Assembly (NCBI GenBank): GCA_018896835.1
Contig: JAHILS010000078.1
Coordinates: forward strand, 1-37,328
Length of the DNA: 37,328 nucleotides
Direction: 5' to 3'
Source: Patescibacteria group bacterium
GTDB taxonomy: Bacteria > Patescibacteriota > Patescibacteriia > UBA9934
In this document: positions 8,379 to 35,400 of the stretch, in pieces
Layout of the letters: every line of letters begins with the position of its first letter
Position numbering within the stretch: the first letter of the stretch is position 1
Made by a program: the position numbers and the translations under genes
Notes under the pieces: generated by a model
Told to the model about the DNA's origin: nothing
Database searches by the model: none
What the model saw: the letters and a program-made list of their open reading frames with translations, nothing else

Positions 8379-11300
8379 TTACTCTTCTTCGATTTGCTCT
8401 TCTTGAGGCTCAACGACCTCATCAGATTCTGCAATTTCTTCTTCAATTCTTTCCGACGCCTTATCTTCGACTTCCTCTTCTCGGAAAGTCTTTATTTCCT
8501 CGTCTTCCACATATTCTTCTTCAGGAATTTCTTCAGGCATCTCGATGTAATCTGTGTCATAACCAGTTCCAGCTGGTATTAGACGTCCAATAATCACGTT
8601 TTCTTTCAATCCGCACAAACCATCGATCTTTCCGGTAACAGCCGCGCCAATAAGCACTCTGGCTGTTTCTTGGAACGAAGCAGCTGACAGCCATGACTCT
8701 GTGGAAAGCGAAACCTTTGTTATTCCCAAGAATAAGTCTTCGTACTGAGCTCCCTTTTTCTTTTCTTTGGCAAGTTTTGCATTTTCACGCTCCAAAGTGG
8801 CGCGTTCCAACACCTCACCTGGTAAAAAGTCTGAATCTTTTGGCTCAGTAATTCGTACTCGGCTAAACATTTGTCGACTAATGATCTCAATATGCTTGCT
8901 GTTTAGCTTCTGGCCTTGAGATGCGTAAACCTCGGTAATCTGATTGAGAATGTAAGCCTGTACTGCCTCACGTCCTTTGTACTTAAATAGTGCTTGCAAG
9001 TCCAAATGACCTTCTGTTAATGAATCCCCAGCTAAAACTTCATCACCATCTTTTACATAAAGAGTGTATCCTTGTGGAATTACATATTCTCTTATTTTTG
9101 GCGCATCATGGGTGATCATCAGAGTAGTCTTTTTTGCCAAAACAGTACCATCAACCTCACTAAGAATCTTTTCACCCGATACTGTCTGTCCAATAACGTC
9201 ACCTTTTCGCACAACGTCACCATCTTTGACAAGCAGTTTACCACCACGTCCAACTGCAAAACGCATTTCCTCAACCGCAGTGTAACGCACTCTAATGATT
9301 GTTTGTCCTGGACGAGCGTCAACGATTTTCTTGCCAGTTCCAACTTGCTCAATTGTTCGCTCAGCGCGTTCAATCTGAACTTTACCTGATACTTCGGTCA
9401 TGATTGCTTTTTGTTTTGGTATTCGCGCCTCAAACAATTCTTCAACACGTGGAAGTCCTGAGGTAATATCTTTACCAGCAACTCCTCCGGTGTGGAAAGT
9501 ACGCATAGTCAACTGCGTTCCAGGCTCACCAATTGATTGGGCAGCGATAATACCAACGGCAGTCCCTGATTTTACTGGTTTGTTGTAGGCCAGGTCATAT
9601 CCATAACACTTCTTACATACTCCACCGTATTCTTTACAAGTAAGAATTGAACGGATGTGTGCAACCTCAAGGTCCTTCTTTGCAGTTTGTAATTCTCGTA
9701 TGTGGTCCTCGGTAATAAGCTCACCAGCCTCAACCACTGTCTTGCGTCCGCCTGGCATAATAATCGGCTTCATGGCCGTACGACCCAAAATTCGGTTATA
9801 AATTGTTTCGCCAGTATCAGCCGCGTCTTTGGCAGTAATAACCATTCCCACTTCGTCACCACAGTCTTCACTGCGAACAACCACATCTTGAGCCACGTCA
9901 ACAAGTCGACGAGTAAGATAACCAGCGTTAGCAGTTTTCAAAGCTGTGTCAGTAAGTCCTTTTCGCTGTCCGTGACTGGAGATAAAGAACTCAAGTACGT
10001 CTACTCCTTCTTTGAAGGATGATTTTACTGGCAACTCAATTGTTTCTCCTGATGCCGACGCTTTCAAACCGATCATACCAATCATCTGTGTCATCTGACC
10101 CCAAGATCCACGAGCCCCGGACTCAATCATGGTATGTGCTGAGCTTTGAGCTGGCAATGCTTTTTTGGCAAGTTCCGCAATCCTATCCTTTACCTCAGCC
10201 CAAACTTTGATGATTTGTGTATGGCGTTCACTTTGTGTCAAAAGTCCTTGCGCATAAAACTGTTCAATTTCCGCAACTCTGGTGTTGCCCTCAGCGATTA
10301 TTGCATGCTTCTCATCAATTGATGGCAATTCACTCATTCCCCATGAATAGCCTGACTTTCCAGCGTAGTAAAATCCCATTTCCTTCAGATCATCTAGCAA
10401 CACAGCAGTTTTTTCCGAACCATGGCGTTCAAGAGTTTCGCGAACGATTTCTGCCAATTGCTTCTTGCCCATTGTTTCATTTTTAAATCCAACAAATTCC
10501 GGCAATCTTTCATTAAGCAATATTCGTCCAACTGTGGTGATTAAAAGCTCACTTTTTATGCGAACTCGTATCCATTGGTGAAGCTTAATTTTTCGATTAT
10601 AATACGCATATTTTGCCTGGACATCATCAGCAAAATTCTTCAAATTTGATTCATCAGGCTCGTCTTCAACCATGGAAAGATAGTACGCTCCCCAAGCAAC
10701 ATCTTTTCCAGGAGTTGCAACTGGCCCACCATGTGAAGGCTTGAGCAAGTTATGAGTTGCTAACATGAGCTCTTCTGCCTCTCTCTTTGCCTCTCGTGTT
10801 AGTGGAACGTGGACTGCCATTTGGTCTCCGTCAAAGTCAGCGTTAAACGCATCACAAACCATTGGATGAACCTGGATAGCCTTTCCTTCAATAAGCACTG
10901 GACGAAAAGCTTGAATACCAAGTCTGTGCAAAGTTGGAGCACGGTTTAATAAGACATATGATACAGAAACAACTTCTTCTAAAATATCCCAAACCTCAGG
11001 TCTGTCTGATTCAATAAATCTATTAGCTGACCTAATGTTGTGCACGTATTCTCGGCCAATTAATTTTGAAATTACAAACGGTCGGAAAAGTTCAAGCGCC
11101 ATCTTCTTTGGAATTCCACATTGATCAATGTGTAGGTGTGGCCCAACCACGATGACCGATCGTCCAGAGTAGTCAATTCGTTTTCCAAGCAAGTTTTGTC
11201 GGAATCGACCCTGCTTTCCTTTTAATACGTCGGCTAATGACTTGAGCTGTCGCTTTCGTCCAGTAGCTGCAATGATCGTTTTAGCACTTCGAGCTGAGTT

Positions 11301-12431
11301 ATCAATAAGTGCATCCACTGCTTCTTGCAACATGCGTTTTTCATTTCTAGTAATAACCTCAGGCGCACTAAGTGCGTGCAAACGTTTTAAACGGTTATTT
11401 CGGTTAATAACGCGTCGGTACAAATCATTAAGGTCGCTTGTTGCAAAACGTCCTCCGTCAAGCGCTACCATTGGACGCAAATCTGCTGGGATAATCGGCA
11501 AGGCGCGTAATATCATCCAGTCAGGCTTGATATTATTCTTTTGCAAACTTCTTAAAAGCTTTAGCCGTCGGATGATTCGGTCGTGCTTCGTGCGTGATCG
11601 AGTTGCTTCCAACTCTTCATCAAGCAATTTGATTGTTGCTGGCACGTCAATGCGTTCCAAAAGCTTAAGTATTGCCTCAGCCCCAATTCCAGCGTCAAAA
11701 ATATGTCCAAATTTGATTGACCAATCTTGATAAACTACCTCAGGGATGATCTTCATTACCTTCATTTCCTTAAGGTCTTGATCAACTTGAAGGAAATCTT
11801 CTTCTAGTTCAGCAAGTTTCTGATCAGCAATCTCATCAATCTTTGCTTTTTCTGCTCCAATTGCCTTGGCATCATCCTTAAACTTCTCTGCGACTCGAGA
11901 AATATCACGATTTCTCTCACCTTCAATCATTTTTTTCTTTGACTTGTATTCCAGGTGGACTTGCTCAACTGTTTGCTCAAGCGCAGTTTGATTGACATCA
12001 ATAATAATAAAACTTGAGAAATAAATTACTTTTTCCAAAGCCTGAACGCCAATATCCAATACTGTTCCAATCTTTGAAGGCACGCCTCTTAAAAACCAAA
12101 TGTGAGTTACTGGAGACACAAGGTCAACGTGACCCATTCGCTCTCGACGGACAACTGCTTGGGTAACTTCTACGCCACATTTATCACAAATGATTCCCTT
12201 ATATCGAATTTTCTTATATTTTCCACAATAACATTCCCAGTCTTTTGACGGACCAAAAATCTCTTCTGCAAATAGTCCGTGTTTTTCAGGCTTTTGTGTT
12301 CTATAGTTAATTGTTTCTGGTTTCGTGACCTCACCATATGACCAAAGGCGAATCGCCTCAGGTGATGCTAAACGCATTCGAATGGAGTCAAAGTCCGTAA
12401 CCTTCAATGTATTTTGTTGTTGTAATGACAT
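8379..12431 (-). CDS. rpoC: DNA-directed RNA polymerase subunit beta-prime
   Basis: 1350 aa with the catalytic NADFDGDQMAVHVP motif and an N-terminal zinc motif (CYCGKYKKIRYKGIICDKCG). It has a long acidic C-terminal tail. Confidence 0.98.
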   Translation of the reverse strand: MSLQQQNTLKVTDFDSIRMRLASPEAIRLWSYGEVTKPETINYRTQKPEKHGLFAEEIFGPSKDWECYCGKYKKIRYKGIICDKCGVEVTQAVVRRERMGHVDLVSPVTHIWFLRGVPSKIGTVLDIGVQALEKVIYFSSFIIIDVNQTALEQTVEQVHLEYKSKKKMIEGERNRDISRVAEKFKDDAKAIGAEKAKIDEIADQKLAELEEDFLQVDQDLKEMKVMKIIPEVVYQDWSIKFGHIFDAGIGAEAILKLLERIDVPATIKLLDEELEATRSRTKHDRIIRRLKLLRSLQKNNIKPDWMILRALPIIPADLRPMVALDGGRFATSDLNDLYRRVINRNNRLKRLHALSAPEVITRNEKRMLQEAVDALIDNSARSAKTIIAATGRKRQLKSLADVLKGKQGRFRQNLLGKRIDYSGRSVIVVGPHLHIDQCGIPKKMALELFRPFVISKLIGREYVHNIRSANRFIESDRPEVWDILEEVVSVSYVLLNRAPTLHRLGIQAFRPVLIEGKAIQVHPMVCDAFNADFDGDQMAVHVPLTREAKREAEELMLATHNLLKPSHGGPVATPGKDVAWGAYYLSMVEDEPDESNLKNFADDVQAKYAYYNRKIKLHQWIRVRIKSELLITTVGRILLNERLPEFVGFKNETMGKKQLAEIVRETLERHGSEKTAVLLDDLKEMGFYYAGKSGYSWGMSELPSIDEKHAIIAEGNTRVAEIEQFYAQGLLTQSERHTQIIKVWAEVKDRIAELAKKALPAQSSAHTMIESGARGSWGQMTQMIGMIGLKASASGETIELPVKSSFKEGVDVLEFFISSHGQRKGLTDTALKTANAGYLTRRLVDVAQDVVVRSEDCGDEVGMVITAKDAADTGETIYNRILGRTAMKPIIMPGGRKTVVEAGELITEDHIRELQTAKKDLEVAHIRSILTCKEYGGVCKKCYGYDLAYNKPVKSGTAVGIIAAQSIGEPGTQLTMRTFHTGGVAGKDITSGLPRVEELFEARIPKQKAIMTEVSGKVQIERAERTIEQVGTGKKIVDARPGQTIIRVRYTAVEEMRFAVGRGGKLLVKDGDVVRKGDVIGQTVSGEKILSEVDGTVLAKKTTLMITHDAPKIREYVIPQGYTLYVKDGDEVLAGDSLTEGHLDLQALFKYKGREAVQAYILNQITEVYASQGQKLNSKHIEIISRQMFSRVRITEPKDSDFLPGEVLERATLERENAKLAKEKKKGAQYEDLFLGITKVSLSTESWLSAASFQETARVLIGAAVTGKIDGLCGLKENVIIGRLIPAGTGYDTDYIEMPEEIPEEEYVEDEEIKTFREEEVEDKASERIEEEIAESDEVVEPQEEQIEEE

Positions 12432-12440
12432 ATAGAAAGC

Positions 12441-15400
12441 TTAGCGGTTGTTTTGTGATTTTGTATCCATATCAATTGCCTCTCCATCCTTTAAAAGCTC
12501 TACGTCTAGACAAAGACCTTTAAGCTCTCGGATAAGAACATTGAATGATTCTGGAATATTGACCTTGTGAATTGGCTCGCCCTTAATGATTGACTCGTAT
12601 GCTTTGGAACGACCTAGAATATCATCTGATTTAATGGTCAAAATTTCCTGGAGCGTATGAGCAGCGCCATAGGCTTCAAGTGCCCAAACTTCCATTTCTC
12701 CAAAACGCTGTCCACCAAATTGAGCCTTACCTCCTAAAGGCTGTTGGGTGATGAGCGAGTAAGGACCAATTGATCGTTGGTGCATCTTATCTTCAACCAT
12801 GTGATTGAGCTTAAGCATGTACATGATTCCAACTGTAATCTTGTTATCAAATGCGTCCCCAGAACGACCATCGTGAAGAATCATCTGTCCGCTTTCGTCA
12901 AAGCCTGCTTTGACTAACTCTTCTCTAATAGTTGACTCTGAAATACCAGCGAAAATCGGTGAGGCGACGTGATAGCTAAGTGCGTCAGCTGCAAGACCAA
13001 GGTGAACTTCCAAAATCTGTCCAAGGTTCATACGTGAAACGACTCCAAGTGGAGTGAGGATAACGTCCATTGTTCGACCCTCAAGGGTAAACGGCATGTC
13101 CTCAACCGGAACAACCTTAGAAACAACACCTTTGTTTCCGTGTCGTCCCGCCATTTTGTCACCAACCTGCATTTTTCGCAGATCGGCAATTGTCACTTGA
13201 ATCGATTTAACAACTCCGGCTGGCAAATTGTCACCTTCTTCGCGAGTAAAGATCTTAATATCAACTACCTTGCCCTTATTGCCGTGTTGCATGTACATTG
13301 ATGAATCTCGAACATCGCGCGCTTTTTCTCCAAAGATTGCTCGGAGCAATTTTTCTTCAGCCGAAAGTTCGGTTTCACCTTTTGGAGTAATTTTTCCAAC
13401 TAATATGTCACCTGATTTAACCTCAGCTCCAATGCGGATAATTCCTTCAAGATCAAGATTTTTAAGTTTTTCTTCAGAAACGTTTGGAATGTCAGAAGTT
13501 ATCACCTCAGGTCCAAGCTTTGTATCACGCACATCAAGTGTGTGATGTTCTAAGTGAATTGTAGTAAAACGATCAGCCTGAACAACGCGCTCGGAAAGAA
13601 TAATAGCGTCTTCATAGTTGTAACCGTCCCAACTCATAAATGCCACGAGCATATTTTGACCAAGAGCAAGTTCTCCTTGATCAACTGAAGGTCCGTCAGC
13701 CAAAATGTCTCCGGCACTGACTATTTCTCCTGCTAAAACAACTGGGCGTTGGTTGATTGATGTTGAGTGGTTTGAACGTTGGAATTTATTCAAGATATAA
13801 ACTGCTTCTCCAGACTTCTTGTAATTTACAACGATCTTTCCACCGTCTGCATATGTCACCTCTCCATCTTCTTGCGCTACTAAAACGTGACCAGAGTCAA
13901 CCGCAGCTCGGCGTTCTCGTCCAGTACCAATCCGAGGAGCTTGAGGATTGATTGGAGGAACAGCCTGACGTTGCATGTTTGATCCCATCAAGGCTCGAGT
14001 GGCGTCGTCATGCTCCAAAAATGGAATAAGAGACGTTCCAATTGAAACGATTTGCGCCGATGAAACATCGATATAATTTATTTCTGTTGCCGGAACGAGC
14101 TGCGCATTACCATGCTTTCGCGCCTCAACCATTTCTGTTTGAATGTATCCATCTTCTGTAATTTTAATTGTTGAAGGACATGTCACAGACTTCTCTTCCT
14201 TAAAAGCGTTTACGTATTCAATCTGGTCTGTAATTTTCATTCTGCCGTTTTCATTAACAACCTTACGATAAGGAGTCTCGATAAATCCATACTTATTGAT
14301 GCGAGCATAACTTGCTAGCTGACCAACAAGTCCAATGTTTGGACCTTCAGGAGTTTGCACAGGACAAATGCGTCCATAGTGAGTAGTGTGCACGTCACGA
14401 ACTTCAAATCCAGCGCGCTCACGAGAAAGACCACCCTGTCCAAGAGCTGAAAGTCGTCGCTTGTGCTCTAATTCTGCCAAAGGGTTTGTTTGATCCATGA
14501 ACTGCGAAAGCTGGGACGACATAAAGAACTCTCTTACCGAACCGATGACCGGACGTGCGTTTATCAATCGCCCTGGTGTAATTGATTCAATATCCTGCGT
14601 GCTCATACGATCACGCACAATGCGCTCCATGCGAGCAAGTCCAATACGGAAACGTCCTTGCAAAAGCTCACCCACAGCACGAACTCGACGATTTCCAAGG
14701 TGATCAACGTCATCTGGTTCGCCTTGTGAAATGTTCAATGAAATGATTTCACGAATAATATCAACCAAATCTTCCTTTGTAAGTATTCTTTTTGCTTCAT
14801 CTTGTACGCCAACTTCTGGATTGTCACGGTTAAATCTTGTATTAAATTTATAACGACCAACTGGACCAAGGTCATAGCGATCAAAATTGAAAAACATGGA
14901 ATGAATCAACTGACGAGCGTTGTCCGCGGTTGCCAAGTCACCTGGTCGAATACGCTTATAAACCTCCTTTAAACCTTCTTCTTCGTTTGTGGAAGCATCT
15001 TTGGCAATTGTTGACTCTATGTAATTACTGAGAGGATGGTTGTCCACGTCTTTAAATAAAGATAGTATTTCCTCATCTGTAAAATACCCGAACGATCGCA
15101 AAAGTGCAGTTACTGCGACTTTTCGCTTGCGGTCAATCTTCACCCAAATAACATTTTTCGCATCAGTTTCAAATTCTAGCCATGCGCCTCTATTTGGAAT
15201 AATCTTGGCTCCATAATAACGTCGTCCGCGTACTACTTCGGCTGTGAAAAATGCCCCTGCAGAACGGACAAGCTGTGAAACAACAACTCGTTCCGAGCCG
15301 TTAACAATGAACGTACCTCGGTCAGTCATGACAGGAAGGTCGCCTAAGAAAATTTCTTGCTCTTTAGCTTCCTTAGTTCGTAAATTGGTCAAAATTGCCT

Positions 15401-15677
15401 TAACACGCAACGGAGCCTCATAAGTAATATTCTTATTTTTTGAGGTTTGCTCATCGAATTTTGGCTCGTCTACAAAATACTCGCCAAAAGACAGCTCTAG
15501 ATCCCGTCCAATAAAATCACCAATCGGTGACACCTCACTAAGAAGCTCAGCAATGCCTTCCTTTAAAAACCACTCATATGAGGCTTTTTGCACCTCAATT
15601 AGGTTAGGTAGGTCCATTGCATCCTTAACTTGAGTAAAATACTTGCGCTCACGAACATTAGTTGCGATTTTGGCCAT
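12441..15677 (-). CDS. rpoB: DNA-directed RNA polymerase subunit beta
   Basis: 1078 aa with conserved beta-subunit blocks ([31 protein letters not shown]). It ends 9 nt before the rpoC start. Confidence 0.98.
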
Positions 15678-15927: not shown

Positions 15928-15987
15928 GGGGTCAGGGCTCTAACTTTGAATTTTTTATGAATTATTCAAAGTTAGAGCCCTGACCCC
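15928..15987 (-). terminator. Very long perfect hairpin (24-bp stem), terminator-like on the minus strand
   Basis: GGGGTCAGGGCTCTAACTTTGAAT (15928-15951) pairs perfectly with ATTCAAAGTTAGAGCCCTGACCCC (15964-15987). On the minus strand the stem is followed by GGTTTTATTTG. Confidence 0.6.
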
Positions 15988-15996
15988 AAAATATAT

Positions 15997-16145
15997 TTGT
16001 TCTGTAAGAACTGCAGGGAAAAGACTTGAAGAAACCAGGCCAATGCTTGCGAACATGAAGAGAGAGATCCTTGCAAGAAGCAAGGTGTTCGGACGTTGAT
16101 CTGGGATATTTAGCTTATCCCCGCAGTTTTTACAGAACAGATTAC
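15997..16145 (-). ncRNA. Candidate structured sRNA (rod-like; 6S RNA is one possibility) between recA and rpoB
   Basis: It has its own promoter (16152-16180) and its own terminator (15928-15987). A closing helix of about 20 bp pairs 16119-16140 with 15997-16018. Internal hairpin CCTTGC-ttctt-GCAAGG and CGAACA/TGTTCG pairing flank large internal loops. There is no credible ORF. Confidence 0.35.
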
Positions 16146-24873: not shown

Positions 24874-25995
24874 ATGAGGAACATCCTCAACGTCATCCGT
24901 CAAATCTCGATCAATGTCTGGCACGGGATGTGCCGGTGGACCCCTGTGGTGGCTTCGGCCATCTGGGCGTTCACTGCAAAGTGGACGCCGGTCGTCTGGT
25001 CATACGCGATCATCGTGATCGTCTGGATCGGACGAGCCCTCTGGAGCACCACGAAATTCGTGGGCCGGCTCATCCGGACCACTGCAATCAATCCCATGCG
25101 CCAGAACACCAAAGTCTGGCTCTTCGGGAACATCTGGGGCGCAATCTTCTGCGCTCTGATGGTGACGGGATTCACCATCTTCTACGGACCGGTGGAAAGC
25201 CCAGTGCCAGAAGGCCCTGACATCGGTGGTGTTGACATCGATCCACCAGTGAAGCCTGGCGAGCCTGCCGTATGTGGCGACGCATGCGTCAAGGAAATTC
25301 GCAATTCGCGCTCAAAGCTCCGTGGCATCGAGAAAGAAGAATTGCGATATGTCCTGGAGGAATACAATAGCTACGTAGCGTCCGAGACCTGGCGCCAACG
25401 CGCACAGTCATGCCACCAGAACTACTGGGAGCACTTCCAGAAGGCAGAGGAGATCACGCTCTACCCGAGCGAACTCCTCGCTGGCAAGGCTTTGATCGAG
25501 GGCGCTGGATGCAAATTCATTACCGCAACAAACGGCGACGGCGGGATCGGGCCAATGCAGATCACACACCCGGTATCTGGCCACATCAACGCCACCGCAC
25601 GACTGCTTGGCACCACAAGCGACGGCGTGCAGTACAGGAGCGACTATCTGCACAACGTGCTCCTGGGCGCTGTCATGTTCTCGGACTTCGAGGACATGTT
25701 CGGAAGTCGTGGCGTTGGGATTCTCGCCTACAACCGCGGACCTGGAAATGTCCGCAGGGACATGCGACGCGCGGGACTCAACAGCTATATGCGTCGTGTG
25801 ATCTCCGACTTCCGTGGCGGAATCCCGGAGCATGCTGGAAAAGGTGGCCGCCCTCGCGTATATGCGGACAAGGTTCTGGCCGGAATGGTCATGATGTACC
25901 GTGTCTCGCATGGGCTTCCGCTCGAACCACTCACCAAGCTAACACTCGACGACATTCCTGGTGCGGATCCATCGCAAGATGGAAAGGATCGCTAG
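24874..25995 (+). CDS. Membrane-anchored lytic transglycosylase (SLT-domain) protein (high-GC cassette B)
   Basis: N-terminal hydrophobic segments are followed by SLT motifs in order: ALIEGAGC (catalytic Glu context), GGIGPMQIT and ILAYNRGPGN. The ORF track starts at 24805, but the promoter and SD favour 24874. Confidence 0.7.
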   Translation: MRNILNVIRQISINVWHGMCRWTPVVASAIWAFTAKWTPVVWSYAIIVIVWIGRALWSTTKFVGRLIRTTAINPMRQNTKVWLFGNIWGAIFCALMVTGFTIFYGPVESPVPEGPDIGGVDIDPPVKPGEPAVCGDACVKEIRNSRSKLRGIEKEELRYVLEEYNSYVASETWRQRAQSCHQNYWEHFQKAEEITLYPSELLAGKALIEGAGCKFITATNGDGGIGPMQITHPVSGHINATARLLGTTSDGVQYRSDYLHNVLLGAVMFSDFEDMFGSRGVGILAYNRGPGNVRRDMRRAGLNSYMRRVISDFRGGIPEHAGKGGRPRVYADKVLAGMVMMYRVSHGLPLEPLTKLTLDDIPGADPSQDGKDR

Positions 25996-26007
25996 GAAAC
26001 TACTCAA

Positions 26008-26036
26008 CCCCCGACCGCACTGCGGATCGGGGGTTT
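26008..26036 (+). terminator. GC-rich rho-independent terminator of cassette B
   Basis: CCCCCGACCGC-act-GCGGaTCGGGGG is followed by TTT, 13 nt after the stop. Confidence 0.65.
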
Positions 26037-26134
26037 GCGCTATTAATCGTATAGAATTTTAGGATTTAAAATAATATGAAAGCATAATTCTAGTATAATC
26101 TTAGTTGCCGCGCAGAATATTAATTACTGATTAG

Positions 26135-26170
26135 TGGCTCACTTTGGGCCGATCGGACCAAAGTGAGCCA
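26135..26170. repeat. 36-nt CGATCG-core palindrome, family 1, copy 1
   Basis: TGGCTCACTTTGG-G-CCGATCGG-A-CCAAAGTGAGCCA has 13-bp arms and one G/A mismatch. It is identical to 26732-26767 and ends 18 nt before the ATG at 26189. Confidence 0.9.
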
Positions 26171-26188
26171 TAGTTAAAATAAACATCT

Positions 26189-26710
26189 ATGAAATCAAAA
26201 TTTCTTAAATCAAACTCACAAACAACTCGTCTTCTAATTCGTATAGGAGATGGGTTGGAGAATATTTGTTTCACACTTGAGAACTCTCGTCTAGTTATGT
26301 CAGTAGGTATAGATGATGCAAGGACTATATTATGGCGTCGCGAACAGACAAGGATAAGAAGAACGATGCGCCAACTGAAGGAAAAAAAACTAATTAAGGT
26401 CAAAAAAGTAGGAAATAAGTACAATGTACTGCTGACAGATGAAGGCATGATCGAATACCTCCATCACAAACTTATTGATTGTAATGAGTTTGAAGACGAC
26501 CAAGTCACCATGGTGATATTTGATATACCAGAGACTCAAAGACAGGTACGAAAACAATTACGTAGGTTTCTTGAAGAAGCATGTTTTATGCCGATTCAAA
26601 AAAGTGTTTGGATTTCAAAATTTGATTCAGGAGAAATATTGTCAAATTTTTTTCAATTAAAAGGTAGACAGAAATGGATCCGGGTATTTAAAGCTAAAAG
26701 ATTATCTTAA
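26189..26710 (+). CDS. Winged-helix plus Cas2/PaaX-C-like ferredoxin-fold protein (PaaX-like regulator family suspected)
   Basis: 173 aa. The N-terminal half contains a recognition helix and wing (IRRTMRQLKEKKLIKVKKVGNKYNVLLTDEG). The C-terminal half, VTMVIFDIPETQRQVRKQLRRFLEEACFMPIQKSVWIS...WIRVFKA, follows the b1-a1-b2 pattern of Cas2 and the PaaX middle domain. It is AT-rich like the backbone. Confidence 0.55.
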   Translation: MKSKFLKSNSQTTRLLIRIGDGLENICFTLENSRLVMSVGIDDARTILWRREQTRIRRTMRQLKEKKLIKVKKVGNKYNVLLTDEGMIEYLHHKLIDCNEFEDDQVTMVIFDIPETQRQVRKQLRRFLEEACFMPIQKSVWISKFDSGEILSNFFQLKGRQKWIRVFKAKRLS

Positions 26711-26731
26711 CAATCAGATTATCAACAAGAT

Positions 26732-26767
26732 TGGCTCACTTTGGGCCGATCGGACCAAAGTGAGCCA
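26732..26767. repeat. 36-nt CGATCG-core palindrome, family 1, copy 2
   Basis: Identical 36-mer lying between the stop of the 26189-26710 ORF and the stop of convergent ychF. Confidence 0.9.
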
Positions 26768-26816
26768 ATTGAATAAAATAACCCCACAAATTAAAACAAA
26801 AATCTTATACAAAGAA

Positions 26817-27893
26817 TCAAACCCCCACTCTAAAGTGACAAACGTCGCCGTCTTGCATGACATATTCTTTTCCTTCAACTCGTAGCTTGCCAGCTTCTTT
26901 GGCACCGACCTCGCCGTTATATTTTACAAAATCCTCATACTTAATTATTTCAGCCCGAATAAATGCTTTTTCAAAATCAGTATGGATTACACCGGCTGAC
27001 TGAGGAGCTTTTGAACCTTTTTGCACAGTCCATGCTCGTGTTTCTTTTTCACCAGTTGTTAAAAATGTGACCAAGTCCAGCATCTCGTAACTTTTTCTAA
27101 TTACCTGGTCTAGTCCCGATTCCCGCAAACCCAGTTCTTGCAAAAATTGTTTAGCATCCTCATCTGGCAATGACACAAGTTCGGCTTCAAGCTTTACAGA
27201 AATCGGAATTGCCATGCGCTCTATTCCAAAAGGTGACTGCCAATTACCAGCCTTGGCTGTTTGCTCGTCAACGTTGACAACGTAAAGAATTTTCTTGGTT
27301 GTGAGTAGTTGAATTTCCTTGAGCGCTTCTTGTTCTTTTTCTGTCAGCTCAACCGAGCTGGCCATTTTGCCTTGCTCGAGAGCTGTTTTGAACTTTTTTA
27401 AACCATCAACTTGTAAAAGTAAAAATTGATCTTTAGTACTTTTTGCTTTTGTTTCGATGGAATCGAGCCTACGATCTACGCTTGAGAGATCTGTCATTGC
27501 CAATTCCATTTCAATAATTTCTGCATCGCGTATTGGGTCGATGCTACCGTCAACGTGAATAATCTCTGGATCATGAAAGGCGCGAACAACGTGAACAATC
27601 ATATCTGTCTCACGGATGTTTGCTAAAAATTTATTACCCAACCCCTCTCCTTTATGTGCACCTTTTACAAGACCGGCAATATCCACAAACTCAATAGCTG
27701 TTGGGATGACCTTCTGTGAAGATGACATTTTTGCCAGCACAGAAAGTCGATCGTCTGGAACCTCGACAATCCCAACGTTTGGTTCAATCGTACAGAACGG
27801 AAAATTCGCGCAATCAACCTGCTTTTTAGTAAGCGCAGTGAAAAGCGTTGATTTACCAACATTTGGAAGTCCGACAATCCCTACTTTTAGCAT
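26817..27893 (-). CDS. ychF: Redox-regulated ATPase YchF
   Basis: 358 aa with the G1 motif GIVGLPNVGKSTLF and a C-terminal TGS-like block (VRAWTVQKGSKAPQSAGVIHTDFEKAFIRAE). Confidence 0.95.
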   Translation of the reverse strand: MLKVGIVGLPNVGKSTLFTALTKKQVDCANFPFCTIEPNVGIVEVPDDRLSVLAKMSSSQKVIPTAIEFVDIAGLVKGAHKGEGLGNKFLANIRETDMIVHVVRAFHDPEIIHVDGSIDPIRDAEIIEMELAMTDLSSVDRRLDSIETKAKSTKDQFLLLQVDGLKKFKTALEQGKMASSVELTEKEQEALKEIQLLTTKKILYVVNVDEQTAKAGNWQSPFGIERMAIPISVKLEAELVSLPDEDAKQFLQELGLRESGLDQVIRKSYEMLDLVTFLTTGEKETRAWTVQKGSKAPQSAGVIHTDFEKAFIRAEIIKYEDFVKYNGEVGAKEAGKLRVEGKEYVMQDGDVCHFRVGV

Positions 27894-28070: not shown

Positions 28071-28598
28071 ATGGATCACCTGATCATCGAAGAACTCCAG
28101 GCTTTCTTCTTCCGCGCCATGCTCCAGGGCTGGATCACGGGAAAGAAGGCCAAGCCGATCGAAGGCCTGCCTGGCTACAAGGGCTTCCGACACCAAGAGG
28201 ATGCGGGAGGGTACAAGCTCCTGCTCGTCGACGCCTGGTGTAGTGGCATGGACGACTACTCCTCCGGCTTCACCACGATCTACACCTCTCCCAAGGACAC
28301 CGACGACGGCAAGCCGATCTGGACTCCGGTCTGGACCATGAACTACATGGGTCACTACGATGAGGGGGAAATCATCGTCGTGATGGATGCGCTACGCCAG
28401 GCCTATCGTACCAGGCAATTCATCGGTGGCCGAGGACTAAACTCGGTCAGGTGTGGTAACTTGCGCTACTCCAACAGAACTGGTCATACGGCCTGCTTCG
28501 AATCCTTCGACGGCATCGAGCATGTCGAAAGTAGTAAACGCACTCCCGGCTTCCATGAATACTCCGGTGGGGTGCTCTTCGACCACAAGAAGAAGTAA
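28071..28598 (+). CDS. Hypothetical protein, DUF5680-like by pattern (high-GC cassette C)
   Basis: 175 aa. The spacing of conserved aromatic and Gly residues (W.MNY.G..., GGRG..., Y.N...G....F.G.E, Y.GG) resembles DUF5680 as I recall it. This was not verified. Confidence 0.45.
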   Translation: MDHLIIEELQAFFFRAMLQGWITGKKAKPIEGLPGYKGFRHQEDAGGYKLLLVDAWCSGMDDYSSGFTTIYTSPKDTDDGKPIWTPVWTMNYMGHYDEGEIIVVMDALRQAYRTRQFIGGRGLNSVRCGNLRYSNRTGHTACFESFDGIEHVESSKRTPGFHEYSGGVLFDHKKK

Positions 28599-28891: not shown

Positions 28892-30004
28892 ATGTCCTTC
28901 CTCATCGTCCTCTTCATCCTCATCGGTTCCATATTCGCGCAGGACCTGACGGTCATGCAGGCCCACAAGACCTACGGGCTCTTGGTGGCTACCGAGAGCT
29001 TCGCGGAGTCAGAGCTGTCGCGCCCGAATGCGACGGCCCTGTGCTCCAAGAACGTGCTGGCTCTCTACAAGTCCATGCCGTTCTCGCAGATCACCAACCT
29101 GTGCAAGCCAGAGGACGCCACCCGCGCCAGCATCCTGGCCTCGGCCAGGCAGATTCAGGAATGCGCCCAGGCGGGCGACACCGTCCTGTTCTTGTTCACT
29201 GGAATGGGCGTAGGTGGAGACTTTGGTGAGCCCATGTTGCTCACCTATGACTCTGCGTTCACTTCTGAAGCAATGGCAGGAACGTCCATCAGGATCGACG
29301 AGCTCACCTCTGTCCTGTCCAAGGACGGAGTGCAGATCATCATGCTGTTGGATGCGTCGCTCAACACCAAGTTCGACCTGGTGACTGACAGTGATCCGCA
29401 ATTGATGACCACCGCGGGCCCGATCGCATCGGACGTGCCGGGCAAATACCTGTCTCTCTCCTACGCACCCAGCGTTGGAGTATGGCCACAAGATCCCGAC
29501 CTGTTTGGCAACACGCTCGCGCACGCGCTCGGTGGCGCGGCCGATGCCAACAGTGACGACACGATCACGCCCGGCGAGATCAACCGCTTCATGGTCGAAC
29601 AGATCAACACCCAAACTGGGATGCCCCCGGGCGTGCGCGGTGAGTGGAGGTCGGCGACCGAACCGATCCTCACGCTCAAGCCAGAACAAGAGCTGGCGAT
29701 CGGGTTTCCCGAACCTCATTCGTGGCGACCGATGGTCTCGCCGACCGTAAAGCGCACGGCCATTATCAGCGGAGCGTCGATGCTCGCGATCGGCGGGGCG
29801 AGCTTCGCACTTTCCTGGCGGGCGCAGAAGTGCCTGGAGGAAGTCTGCTACCAAAACCGTGACGAGTACGACTCCGCGGTTTCCCAGCGCAATGCCTTCC
29901 TCTGGGTAACCAGAGGAGCAAGTACGCTCGGCGCAATCGGACTGGGCGGAGGTCTCGTCCTCCAACCCAACAGTGCCAGCTTGAGCCTCACGGCTCGCTG
30001 GTAA
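28892..30004 (+). CDS. Secreted, C-terminally membrane-anchored caspase-like (peptidase C14 fold) protein lacking the catalytic His/Cys dyad (high-GC cassette D)
   Basis: 370 aa with a signal peptide MSFLIVLFILIGSIFAQD. The caspase-domain layout is YGLLVA...DAT...GDTVLFLFTGMG...LLTYD...IIMLLDAS. The usual SGHG is TGMG and D(A/S)C is DAS. Two hydrophobic helices lie near the C-terminus. Confidence 0.5.
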   Translation: MSFLIVLFILIGSIFAQDLTVMQAHKTYGLLVATESFAESELSRPNATALCSKNVLALYKSMPFSQITNLCKPEDATRASILASARQIQECAQAGDTVLFLFTGMGVGGDFGEPMLLTYDSAFTSEAMAGTSIRIDELTSVLSKDGVQIIMLLDASLNTKFDLVTDSDPQLMTTAGPIASDVPGKYLSLSYAPSVGVWPQDPDLFGNTLAHALGGAADANSDDTITPGEINRFMVEQINTQTGMPPGVRGEWRSATEPILTLKPEQELAIGFPEPHSWRPMVSPTVKRTAIISGASMLAIGGASFALSWRAQKCLEEVCYQNRDEYDSAVSQRNAFLWVTRGASTLGAIGLGGGLVLQPNSASLSLTARW

Positions 30005-30069: not shown

Positions 30070-30109
30070 ATTTGCCATATAGTGTTCGATCGAGCACTAT
30101 ATGGCAAAT
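30070..30109. repeat. 40-nt CGATCG-core palindrome, family 2
   Basis: ATTTGCCATATAGTG-T-TCGATCGA-G-CACTATATGGCAAAT has perfect 15-bp arms. It lies between the cassette D terminator and the stop of the convergent TPR membrane gene. Confidence 0.9.
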
Positions 30110-32496: not shown

Positions 32497-35400
32497 TTAC
32501 TCAATTGATTCAGTGACTTGTTCTGGGGCTACTTCAACAGTTGGCTCAACAACATCTTCTTCAACAACAGCATCTTCAACAACGGCATCTTCAACAACGG
32601 CATCTTCAACAGCTTCTTCTTCAACAACATCTTCTTCTATAACTTCCTCCTGATCAATCTCAACTCCATCACCAACAACTATTTCATCTACAACCTCATC
32701 AACGTCGGTAATATCTTGACTCCTATCCTCTGTAATCACTTGATCAACCGGCTCATTAAAGATTTCAACAATATCCTCATCGACAATCTCAACATTTTGA
32801 TCAACGACGTTCTCCTCAATATTTTCTTCTTCCACCGCTATATTATCTTTTTCTACTTCAACATCTGGAGCGTAATCCTTATGATACGCAATTACCAGCC
32901 AATCAACATTTACACCATTAGTTTCAAGAGTATCCTTGATTATAAAGCCTTCCGAGTCTCTATTGATCGCATAAAGTGAACCAGATGGCGCATCGGCTGT
33001 CAAAAATACGCGGTAAGTAGAAAGATTATCAATTATTTTTTCAAAATTAGGGTCAATGTCCGCAAAAATTACATGCGCTCGACCATTCTGAAGCTTGATA
33101 GTACCGGAAAGCTCAATAGTTGTTTGTGGTGATACAACCGCATAAGCTTCTATTCGCTCTCCGCCATACGACTTAATATTTTGTACAAATCTGCCACCAG
33201 TCTTGATTGTCCCGTCCTCAGAAATTGACCAAACGTTACCAATCCCCGCGATCGATCCAACCGAAAGCAAACTTCCTCCACTCAAATTCACAATGCCAGA
33301 AAGATCAAGTGTGCTTGATGAGGCGACCTGAGTGATCGAATTATCAGAAAGGTCAGCACTTTGTCCATCAAAGTATGAAGGACGGACAAAAACAGAAATA
33401 GATCCGACTGTTCCCGAGAATGCTTCCATGGCATAACCAACAATTGGGCCAGACTCTGTCGCCTTCATGGCATAGCCTGGTTTGGATGAGGTTGTTAGCG
33501 GATCTCCAATTGAAATCGACCCGTTCTCATTACTGACATAGGTTGGAACTCGACCAGAAAGCGCAATTGGTACATGACCGTCAATATTATTTCCTGCTAA
33601 AAATCCGGGTTGAGTGGAAACAATGCCGGCAATTTTTGCGTCATAAGTAGTACCAGTTGATCGTTTTACCGAATCCTTACTGCTTGCAAACACCACAACT
33701 TCACCTGGCGCCACTGGCTCTGCGACTGGGAACATTTCGGCAAAGTCATATGAGCCCGATCCCCAACCAGACGCGTTAGTACGCATAAAATCTCCGCCAA
33801 GTCCGGAGGAACCATCGTAATAAATATATTTATCAGTCTGCAAAACTCCACGATCTGATGGATACAAACGACCCGAAATTGCCATGTCGCCGTCTTGATT
33901 TATAAATCCAACCTCTGTCTCACCCGTGTTTCTAAATGATAATTGATAGTTTGACGCGTCTGTCACACTATTTACAAACCCCATGGAAATATCCTGAGCT
34001 GATGCTCCGTCCCAGCCTGATCCGCGAAGCATTAGTCCATAGGAATTGAGTCCTGGCATAACCGCGTCAGCTGTACCTGTTGAGTCTAGTACCAAGTCTG
34101 TTCCGACCGATGTCATACTACCGTCTTGCGCTAAAACATTTATAGCCTGCCACTTTGGCTGAACATAGACATTAATTCTGCCAGTACCTGACAAGTGTGA
34201 CTCTAAAGCGCGACCAATCACATAACCAACTCCATTTGCCTTCATTACAACGCCCGGAGTTGAAGAAAGTGTCAGATAATCACCTGCCGTAATTGCGCCA
34301 CCTTCATCATTTACATTAATTGGAACCTGACCCAAAAGTGCTACCGGAACATACGCACCAGTCTCGCGCCAGCCTTCAAACCAATTTCCAATCACATTTG
34401 GAGATATAGAATATGCACCAATTATTTTGTCGGCATTGGAGGCTATAGTTGCGTTTCCTAATGAATCAATTCCTATTACATCACCATCTGAAAAATCCGC
34501 CATAACACCAGGAAATAACTCTGCATAATCACTTCCAGGAGACACAAGCGCAACGCCGCCACCAGTTCCTTCGATTGCACCTAATGGATCGCCACTGCCA
34601 TCTTTTAGCAATAAATAATTACATGCATCTGTAGGGTTTGAATCTAAGCAAGCCTGTATACTTATACCCATGTTTGTGTAAGCATTTCCGTCATTAAAGA
34701 AGCTAGCGATGTAATCGGTTGTGCCGAATGCAGAAACATACATAGCTTGCTGATCACCGACTTGATTTACATACAGGGAGTACCCCGTACCAGAGTTCGT
34801 TGTGTACAGGGTGTTACCGGTAGATGCACCGTCTCCCATACTCAAGCTAACAAGTCCTGTGCTTGCATTAATAAAATCGGTCGCGCTGTTATCACGAGAA
34901 ACATACACAGCACTTCCGGTTGTAAGAGTATCATTCACTATTGCTGTGATAAACCCGCCAGTCTGTCCGGTGCCATCAACTTCCAGTTGATCGTATACAT
35001 ACAAATCCCCTGATCCGGTTGAATAATTGGCGGTCGACGGCGTTGAACTATTTTCAACATGAACAGCCGATCCGAAAAAATATCCAGCATAATTATTTGT
35101 GCCACCCGACGCTGTGCCTCGCACTCCGTAACGATTAATACCGGCACTTTTGCTAGAAAAATCACCACCGTAGCCTGTTGTTATTGTGCCAGCACCGCTA
35201 CTGACCTCACCTTGAACACCAAAAGCGCTCGAAATCGTTCCGCCTGATGACAGGACTTTGCCATAAACACCAACAACAGTCGGTATGGTTGATCCTACCC
35301 CGCTATTATATGCCTCAGAATATAGGCCATACATCGTGTTTTCTATTGGAGATACAGCTGTTGATGAATTAATTGCGCGGATCTCCATCCCCTTCATTAT

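Follow-up and report, generated by a model that had tools for sequence, protein, structure and literature searches.

The DNA analysed here is a stretch of 37,328 nt from a Patescibacteria group bacterium (contig JAHILS010000078.1, referred to below as the window), in which a gene for a 173-aa protein is bracketed by two identical 36-nt palindromes. This protein is a 'mini-PaaX', that is, a winged helix followed by a Cas2-like domain, minus the C-terminal effector domain of the repressor PaaX, and it belongs to a large family whose members, even when very divergent, carry palindromes of their own. As for function, we would put at about one in two the probability that the palindromes are double-stranded operators for the dimeric mini-PaaX product, the upstream copy mediating autorepression, an idea that leans on the analogy with PaaX. 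A large family of bracketed mini-PaaX genes in Patescibacteria has apparently gone undescribed so far: no description of this layout was found in the searchable literature, which agrees with a previous inspection of the window from its letters alone (hereafter the sequence-only reading) that knew of no described element so arranged.

A mini-PaaX gene between two palindromes

The 36-mer TGGCTCACTTTGGGCCGATCGGACCAAAGTGAGCCA lies at 26135-26170 and, in identical form, at 26732-26767, the two copies exactly bracketing a unit of 633 bp, and there is no further copy within three mismatches in the window (0 are expected from 100 shuffles). Each copy is a zero-loop palindrome with outer arms of 13 bp, one G/A mismatch and a CCGATCGG core, and the downstream copy is even symmetric to 40 nt. 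Between them, 26189-26710 is the sole sizeable open reading frame (ORF) on the + strand; it starts 18 nt after the left palindrome, with no Shine-Dalgarno (SD)-like motif in the gap, and the downstream 36-mer begins 21 nt past its stop codon, in the space where the 3' ends of this gene and of ychF converge. The bracketing, the architecture of the arms, the single ORF and the 18-nt gap devoid of SD had all been pointed out in the sequence-only reading, and each of them stands. The last of these is not distinctive, because 19 of the 23 confidently placed window genes also lack an SD (an SD-like motif lies within 18 nt of the start in the other four), and the organism seems to start translation largely without SD pairing.

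The winged helix and Cas2/PaaX fold that had been attributed to the gene product are supported by profile, structure and sequence comparisons, the Cas2/PaaX part firmly and the winged helix by the structural model and weak matches. In Pfam, PaaX_M (PF20803, "PaaX central Cas2-like domain") matches residues 104-170 (E=6.8e-14, 52.2 bits vs a cutoff of 24), DUF6293_C gives a weak winged-helix match to residues 57-86, and neither PF07848 (PaaX N-terminal) nor PF08223 (PaaX_C) is matched by this protein, which ends at residue 173. The NCBIfam cas2 model TIGR01573 is passed at 26.5 bits (cutoff 24.5), with a match limited to model positions 3-40 of 96, and the score with the PaaX equivalog TIGR02277 is far from its cutoff (13.7 vs 264.55 bits). 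The AlphaFold model (predicted local distance difference test, pLDDT, 76.5) consists of helices and a beta wing (residues 43-96), followed by a beta-alpha-beta-beta-alpha-beta domain. With Foldseek, the C-terminal half matches type II-A Cas2 (prob 1.0) and VapD, and both halves match E. coli PaaX (8a39, 126 columns) and Rv0674, while a sequence search of the PDB finds Cas2 (FDLP...QKSVY) and, weakly, the winged-helix proteins AspA (E=0.012) and ArsR. PADLOC also matches the protein with Cas2 models; it gave nothing beyond these, and a defence-system reading was rejected.

In an alignment of 12 homologues, the invariant residues are T83, F111, D112, I113, P114, E115, R121, L124, L128, Q137, K138, S139 and V140. 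Judged as a sequence motif, the FDIPE...R...QKSV invariants are the Cas2 signature, the conserved Asp of Cas2 included, and no HUH motif, invariant Tyr, recombinase motif or transposase motif is found among the invariant residues of these homologues or the Pfam matches. A few distant relatives (P0012 and L031; homologue loci are given L numbers) do bear a PaaX_C-like tail, and in L031 a 46-nt CGATCG-centred palindrome (10391-10436) sits in-frame inside the 258-aa ORF, between PaaX_M and this tail, with no palindrome upstream of the gene. Another homologue, P0005, is named 'CRISPR-associated endonuclease Cas2' at NCBI, with no cas1 or array near it, and Patescibacteria genomes probably carry many misleading 'orphan Cas2' annotations of this kind.

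PaaX, a repressor in E. coli and Pseudomonas that responds to phenylacetyl-CoA, has a winged helix ahead of a Cas2-like middle domain, the order predicted for mini-PaaX as well, and it acts on a very long dyad operator (39 bp, vs 36-40 bp for the candidate sites of mini-PaaX) to occlude its own promoter. Unlike PaaX, however, mini-PaaX has no PaaX_C effector domain, no PF07848 match and a TIGR02277 score that is a small fraction of the cutoff, and its gene is bracketed by two sites. Each of these is palindromic over the whole 36 bp instead of in the outer hexamers only, there are no paa (phenylacetate) genes nearby among the window genes scanned (and neighbours vary across loci), and the family is confined to Patescibacteria in the loci sampled (but for three genomes mentioned below). 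Mini-PaaX also keeps the Cas2-type motif FDIPE...QKSVW, which to our knowledge is missing from E. coli PaaX. With Cas2 and VapD, mini-PaaX has in common the ferredoxin fold and the beta1/beta4 sequence motif, and the 36 nt of its palindromes resemble the length of CRISPR repeats. However, its 173 aa include a ~100-aa N-terminal winged-helix region, whereas Cas2 is a single domain of ~90-110 aa; there is no cas1 or array in the window; and its only two repeats are parted by a gene instead of a spacer. Mini-PaaX is therefore neither PaaX proper nor Cas2, since the defining features of both were tested for and not found, and the unit could be described as a PaaX-type repressor with its operator, minimal in its domains and bracketed by two sites.

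Linkage and relocation across the family

The association between gene and palindromes extends to the whole family, which is large. A profile search of 1.84 billion representative proteins returned at least 4,683 clusters (defined at 50% identity) at E<=1e-10, mostly of 160-200 aa. Homologue loci were collected from one genome per species and from JGI metagenomes (121 loci added, with up to 10 kb read on each side of the match), and those that are named are nearly all labelled Patescibacteria, along with three metagenome-assembled genomes labelled "uncultured Gammaproteobacteria". Palindromes lie on both sides of the gene in homologues with 68% (L007), 55% (L003/L014), 43% (L008/L015) and 32-34% identity (L011 and L012, where the neighbourhood is quite different and contains type IV secretion-like genes). 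L008, L009 and L010 are identical sequences and so offer no alternative contexts. From the 68% to the 32-34% homologues, the centre CGATCG is common to the palindromes, and the arms differ.

In a census of 109 loci with distinct proteins, made with a strict detector that required at least 11 pairs, palindromes were recorded upstream of the gene at 58 of 101 loci, downstream at 68 of 104 and on both sides at 38 of 96, several of the misses being degenerate copies that are recognisable by eye; median length is 36 nt. Palindromes centred on CG(A/G)(T/C)CG occur in 84 of 205 gene-flank windows vs only 5 in 876 kb of surrounding DNA, a ~360-fold enrichment. A generic high-copy repeat with no link to the gene family, an outcome by which the sequence-only reading would have been refuted, is strongly contradicted by this enrichment and by homologues down to ~30% identity with their own palindromes. 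The arms vary by lineage and by paralog (paralogs within one genome, such as L046, L050 and L053, have differing arms), yet they agree between the two copies at one gene, a concerted evolution that reaches to ~18-20 bp from the dyad, beyond which the copies diverge.

Neighbouring genes show no preferred identity or strand (22 '+' and 24 '-' downstream, 23 '+' and 20 '-' upstream), and no partner NTPase or adaptor gene is conserved beside the unit in the loci examined; the unit therefore stands alone. This sets it apart from AspA (pNOB8) and ParB/parS, in which, as is proposed here, a binder is encoded beside its own palindromic site (AspA being the weak winged-helix match mentioned above), but which have such partners; mini-PaaX has in addition sites on both flanks and a Cas2-like, putative dimerisation domain. 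A phage or plasmid origin was rejected, 2.9 million viral contigs having yielded one distant relative, itself without palindromes. Two further observations were made at homologue loci. Near the family member in L038, CCATTCAACAATTCCATGGAATTGTTGAATGG occurs twice, 3.4 kb apart (11471-11502 and 14838-14867), and may bracket another, larger unit. In L008, a tRNA-like sequence (~10640-10715, by eye) appears to lie on the opposite strand ~75 nt past the downstream palindrome of the unit, and beyond it comes a variable island that is rich in GC (0.62-0.70 vs 0.55).

Palindromes also occur on their own. The window holds one such solo, ATTTGCCATATAGTGTTCGATCGAGCACTATATGGCAAAT (Table 1), which shares its centre and its 40-bp span with the unit palindrome and differs from it in about half of the arm. 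In L015, L016, L058/59 and L064, the big ORF and TPR gene are followed by a full palindrome-gene-palindrome unit exactly at the slot where the window has this solo. The neighbourhood was surveyed by following TPR orthologues from the window, where the TPR gene (100%) is followed by the 40-nt solo and the region beyond contains ychF, unit, SLT and methyltransferase. In the closest relative, L136 (TPR 87%), there is no palindrome after TPR but a clean indel of ~50 nt, and the contig ends before the ychF-methyltransferase region. L138 (52%) has none after TPR and a different 40-nt palindrome between the convergent ychF and methyltransferase genes; L140 (50%) has a perfect 38-nt solo palindrome after TPR, with ychF, SLT and methyltransferase; and L141 (48%) has none directly after TPR and a solo after a TrmB gene in a variable island, these last three being without a unit. 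The TrmB-like gene was considered as a hidden family member and rejected (hhalign gave only a generic winged-helix match). The window solo resembles the palindromes of the TPR-site clade only weakly (7-8 of 14 arm positions), and nothing rests on this similarity.

The unit itself changes place. Gene order is methyltransferase, SLT, unit, ychF in the window and methyltransferase, unit, SLT, ychF in L014 and L007, the SLT promoter-gene-terminator block being orthologous (68% aa identity, with a conserved 40-nt stretch of promoter DNA). In all, the unit is found in at least three intergenic slots within one conserved ~10-kb block and is absent there in L138, L140 and L141, which is presence/absence variation of the kind that the sequence-only reading had suggested looking for. 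Indels directly adjoin palindromes in several comparisons (L039 vs L041, L047 vs L049, L020 vs L072), and at 2849-2976 in L046 the palindrome TATCACATGAAAACGCGATCGCGTTTTCATGTGATA is separated from an imperfect copy by 53 nt that contain no gene. A -10-like element and an FtsB-like gene follow shortly after this geneless pair, which might be either an 'empty' unit or a regulated target. Solo copies are few (5 CG-centred and ~13 family-type in 876 kb of flanks), each palindrome type being present in 2-3 copies.

The simplest account of this pattern is passive. Recombination between the two near-identical copies would delete the gene and leave a single palindrome, and the palindrome on an excised or incoming copy would recombine with a resident solo palindrome, by which the unit would be re-inserted there; recombination of this sort would be the reason why the unit is found in different intergenic slots of related genomes. 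An active role of the mini-PaaX protein in relocation is possible but unsupported.

Table 1. Coordinates of the mini-PaaX unit and of solo palindromes (window positions unless a locus is named)
Feature	Position	Strand	Remarks
Upstream palindrome, candidate operator 1	26135..26170	.	36 bp, centre CGATCG; 18-nt gap to ATG
Putative -10-like hexamer TAAAAT	26175..26180	+	8 nt before ATG; candidate promoter element read from sequence
mini-PaaX gene	26189..26710	+	173 aa; winged helix ~11-96, Cas2-like/PaaX_M ferredoxin domain ~104-170; no PaaX_C
Downstream palindrome	26730..26769	.	symmetry to 40 bp; includes 36-mer 26732-26767
Solo palindrome	30070..30109	.	40 bp, CGATCG centre; 18 nt after TPR gene stop, past terminator of convergent gene
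Solo palindrome, L138	9704-9743		34-40 nt; between convergent genes
Solo palindrome, L140	7397-7434		34-40 nt; between convergent genes
Solo palindrome, L141	10966-10999		34-40 nt; between convergent genes

Candidate functions of the palindromes

Three roles had been proposed for the palindromes in the sequence-only reading (operators, RNA hairpins and ends of a mobile module), of which the first is the best supported, by the symmetry of the centre, a PaaX-like geometry and a position at the start region, from which binding by the protein is inferred. In 84 of 104 family-type sites the central 6-mer is itself perfectly palindromic: it is CGATCG in 69 and a symmetric double variant in 15 (CATATG in 6, CTATAG in 4, CAATTG in 3 and CCATGG in 2), and another 15 sites have CGGTCG or CGACCG. 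Because these six bases, which cannot pair in a hairpin, are still dyad-symmetric and their variants change symmetrically, it is duplex DNA that would be read, by a two-fold dimer. The gap between upstream palindrome and ATG has a median of 17.5 nt family-wide (the two overlap in several Uhrbacteria-like members), and that between stop codon and downstream palindrome a median of 29 nt (with overlap of the stop codon in L016). E. coli PaaX recognises TGATTC-N27-GAATCA, a site of 39 bp, and keeps its own promoter Px repressed through steric hindrance (review PMC9493321), a geometry that is matched here by a dyad site of 36-40 bp located 18 nt before the ATG. If the TAAAAT hexamer read from the sequence at 26175-26180 is a promoter element, the mRNA would have little or no leader. 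Across the family, 27 of 37 loci (vs 45% in shuffles) show a -10-like hexamer that ends 3-12 nt short of the ATG, and this hexamer often coincides with the outer end of the right arm (TGTTATAAT in L035 and L050, TGTTAATAT in L033), which at the level of consensus matches suggests a palindrome placed over the promoter or start region.

If the palindromes are operators, the 633-bp unit would be a self-contained regulatory cassette encoding a minimal PaaX-type protein, in which the N-terminal winged helix would read DNA and the Cas2-like ferredoxin domain would make the dimer and sit over the centre of the site. In Cas1-Cas2 complexes, the Cas2 dimer is placed at the middle of the DNA duplex, which is a plausible model for how mini-PaaX might contact the palindrome centre. 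The Cas2-like part, which is invariant, would then recognise the near-invariant CGATCG centre, and the winged helix, which is variable, would recognise the arms specific to each lineage. With the upstream site over its own promoter or start region, the protein would block its own synthesis in the manner of E. coli PaaX at Px. A second operator would be provided by the downstream site, which would work either by looping out ~560 bp together with the first or by blocking transcription from the convergent neighbour, and solo sites such as that at 30070-30109 would be further binding sites. Two other roles considered for the downstream palindrome were rejected, i.e. operator of a co-directional downstream gene (neighbours being 22 co-directional and 24 convergent) and classical terminator (no T-tail in the window, and a T-rich tail at 15 of 54 downstream copies family-wide).

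Several observations weigh against operators. No full sigma-70 promoter emerged from a consensus scan of the + strand near the window unit, the enrichment of -10-like hexamers is modest given AT-rich DNA, and the lack of SD is genome-wide, so that it is no argument for leaderless mRNA and was dropped as such. Where the two copies were compared, at 32 loci, 436 pairs are identical, 41 carry double-compensatory changes, 33 a single change and 8 a non-compensatory double (compensatory examples are L037, where TTTTAA vs CTTCTG leaves both copies perfect, L033, L028 and L064). A protein tolerating either base would not need compensatory changes, which point instead to intra-strand pairing or to the correction of quasipalindromes by template switching. 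Mismatches within the palindromes are more often G.T than A.C on the sense strand (32:13, p=0.007), a bias that fits a single-stranded or RNA form, or else a strand-biased mutation process, and that no explanation adopted here fully covers. Together with hairpin stability, compensatory changes and G.T bias favour some intra-strand pairing (in RNA, cruciform or single-stranded DNA), or else a mutational process such as template switching, combined with strand-biased mutation. Finally, there is no promoter to regulate where the downstream copy and most solos are located, namely between the 3' ends of convergent genes, and a regulator with sites mostly around its own gene has no evident physiological output.

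The alternative that survives best, which we nevertheless consider improbable, is that the unit is an active mobile or recombination cassette whose palindromes are substrates, the Cas2-like domain, which keeps the conserved Asp of Cas2 within the invariant FDIPE...QKSV motif, cutting, pairing or bridging them. The gene and one palindrome would be excised and would integrate at solo palindromes, which would make the unit a low-copy analogue of REP/RAYT (repetitive extragenic palindromes and REP-associated tyrosine transposases) or of integron cassettes. The variable position of the unit and the solo palindromes at syntenic sites are the part of this proposal that holds, as seen in the three insertion slots of one conserved neighbourhood (which is empty in some relatives), solos at slots that elsewhere hold the full unit, a solo present in the window and missing from L136, the geneless pair of L046 and the indels adjoining palindromes. 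Several paralogs per genome with distinct palindromes, the in-frame palindrome of L031, and zero-loop symmetry with compensatory changes, as expected from templated regeneration, speak in the same direction. The unit is also like REP/RAYT in that a single-copy gene is flanked on both sides by cognate palindromes, paralogs are paired with different palindrome families and solos lie mostly between convergent genes.

However, target-site duplications, which the sequence-only reading had suggested looking for, were not found over 30 loci (the longest word shared by the flanks averages 4.23 vs 4.09 in shuffles), nor is there any of the chemistry of a recombinase, such as the HUH and Tyr residues of RAYT (an IS200/IS605-like transposase), among the motifs listed above. 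With 2-3 copies per palindrome type and about a dozen solos in 876 kb, the palindromes are low-copy, unlike REP, of which there are hundreds, and their zero-loop, fully symmetric sites differ from those of REP/REPIN. Furthermore, there is but one relative in 2.9 million viral contigs, the synteny of the TPR unit is stable over five genomes, the window solo shares only about half of its arm with the unit palindrome and therefore has not exchanged with it recently, and homologous deletion between 36-40-bp repeats, together with rearrangement, explains the pattern without an enzyme. The strong form of this proposal, in which a dimer of the winged-helix/Cas2 protein recognises and pairs ~36-bp palindromes, nicks or bridges them and makes the cassette self-mobilising, excising to and integrating at solos, is a poorer prospect than either the broader proposal or the RNA hairpins that follow.

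We also doubt, slightly more than in the case of a cassette, that the palindromes act as RNA, i.e. as transcribed hairpins at the 5' and 3' ends of the mRNA with roles in stability, termination or translation control. By analogy with Cas2 and its VapD relatives, which are ribonucleases, such hairpins may be bound or cut by the Cas2-like protein. Their predicted stability is high (-29 kcal/mol, z about -6 to -7), pairing is kept by compensatory double changes, G.T exceeds A.C on the sense strand both upstream (15:7) and downstream (17:6), in L017, L062, L070 and L074 the right arm includes the start codon, and a T-rich tail is found at 15 of 54 downstream copies. Against this, the would-be loop is near-invariant and itself palindromic, with symmetric variants, and many upstream copies are followed by a -10-like element 6-12 nt before the ATG, which would leave them outside the mRNA. 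A promoter/terminator scan found zero terminator-like sites in 25950-26900, with no T-tail or intrinsic terminator at the window palindromes, and an Rfam search of 25900-27000 gave only sub-threshold chance matches, mostly to microRNA families. In addition, solos lie past bona fide terminators between convergent genes, and the element is present on both sides whatever the orientation of the neighbours. The hairpins that the sequence-only reading had proposed are predicted to be stable and are biased towards G.T, but they have no terminator features, and the case for them is weaker than that for operators.

Essentially excluded are a generic extragenic palindrome or bidirectional terminator that flanks the gene by chance, for which it can be said that patescibacterial loci hold many other long zero-loop palindromes (A-tract/GC-stem/T-tract, bidirectional-terminator-like), but which is contradicted by the near absence of CG-centred palindromes away from family flanks, by arms that co-vary with the gene across the family and by the lack of a T-tail at the window palindromes, and the degenerate remains of a CRISPR-Cas system (a Cas2 with two repeats), which passes the TIGR01573 cutoff and has repeats of a typical 36 nt, but comes with an extra winged helix, a protein twice the size of Cas2 and no cas1, other cas gene (among the ORFs scanned) or array in 37 kb of housekeeping DNA.

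Genomic setting and implications

The window is an ordinary chromosomal stretch from an Uhrbacteria-like member of the Patescibacteria. Its housekeeping genes encode UvrA, UvrB, RuvC, YebC, RecA, FtsK, EF-P, SSB, S6, a UPF0020 methyltransferase and YchF, and it further contains the SLT-like gene, the TPR protein and a 1354-aa protein. No cas1 or other cas gene was found among window ORFs of at least 120 aa scanned against Pfam (the two largest ORFs, 8379-12431 and 12441-15677, excluded), no CRISPR repeat array is present in the 37 kb, and no cas genes were seen in the homologue loci examined.

Some features of the window stand apart from the unit. Three genes have a GC content at third codon positions (GC3) of 0.70-0.78 vs 0.28-0.36 in the others, namely the SLT-like gene, a DUF5680 gene and an unknown 370-aa gene (24874-25995, 28071-28598 and 28892-30004), and these make up three of the four SD-bearing window genes. 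The SLT orthologue in L014 (68% aa identity) has a GC3 of 0.74, and the SLT anomaly is therefore old or maintained. The intergenic region between a 1078-aa ORF and recA contains a perfect 24-nt inverted repeat with a 12-nt loop (15928-15987) and a second inverted repeat of 29 nt, 90 nt apart (15995-16142), and a 15-nt tandem repeat, TCAACAACAGCATCT, in ~6 copies on the minus strand (32546-32637) codes for a short peptide repeat within the 1354-aa ORF.

Patescibacteria have tiny genomes and few recognisable regulators, and a family of at least 4,683 clusters at 50% identity is largely unannotated in them, standard pipelines labelling its members "hypothetical" or, misleadingly, "CRISPR-associated endonuclease Cas2". 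Since each member carries its own putative pair of sites, the family offers a large natural set of protein-DNA specificities for a PaaX/Cas2-type scaffold, which could make the problem of PaaX-operator recognition tractable. The bracketed layout, CGATCG core, solo palindromes and relocation point to an insulated autoregulatory design that moves by site-to-site recombination. If the Cas2-like domain were to process the palindromes, mini-PaaX would be the first member of the Cas2 family to process DNA sequence-specifically in its own right, and a living example of a Cas2-like protein tied, physically and evolutionarily, to 36-nt palindromic repeats outside CRISPR. Were this domain catalytic, it would bear on how Cas2 came to associate with palindromic repeats, that is, on the origins of CRISPR.

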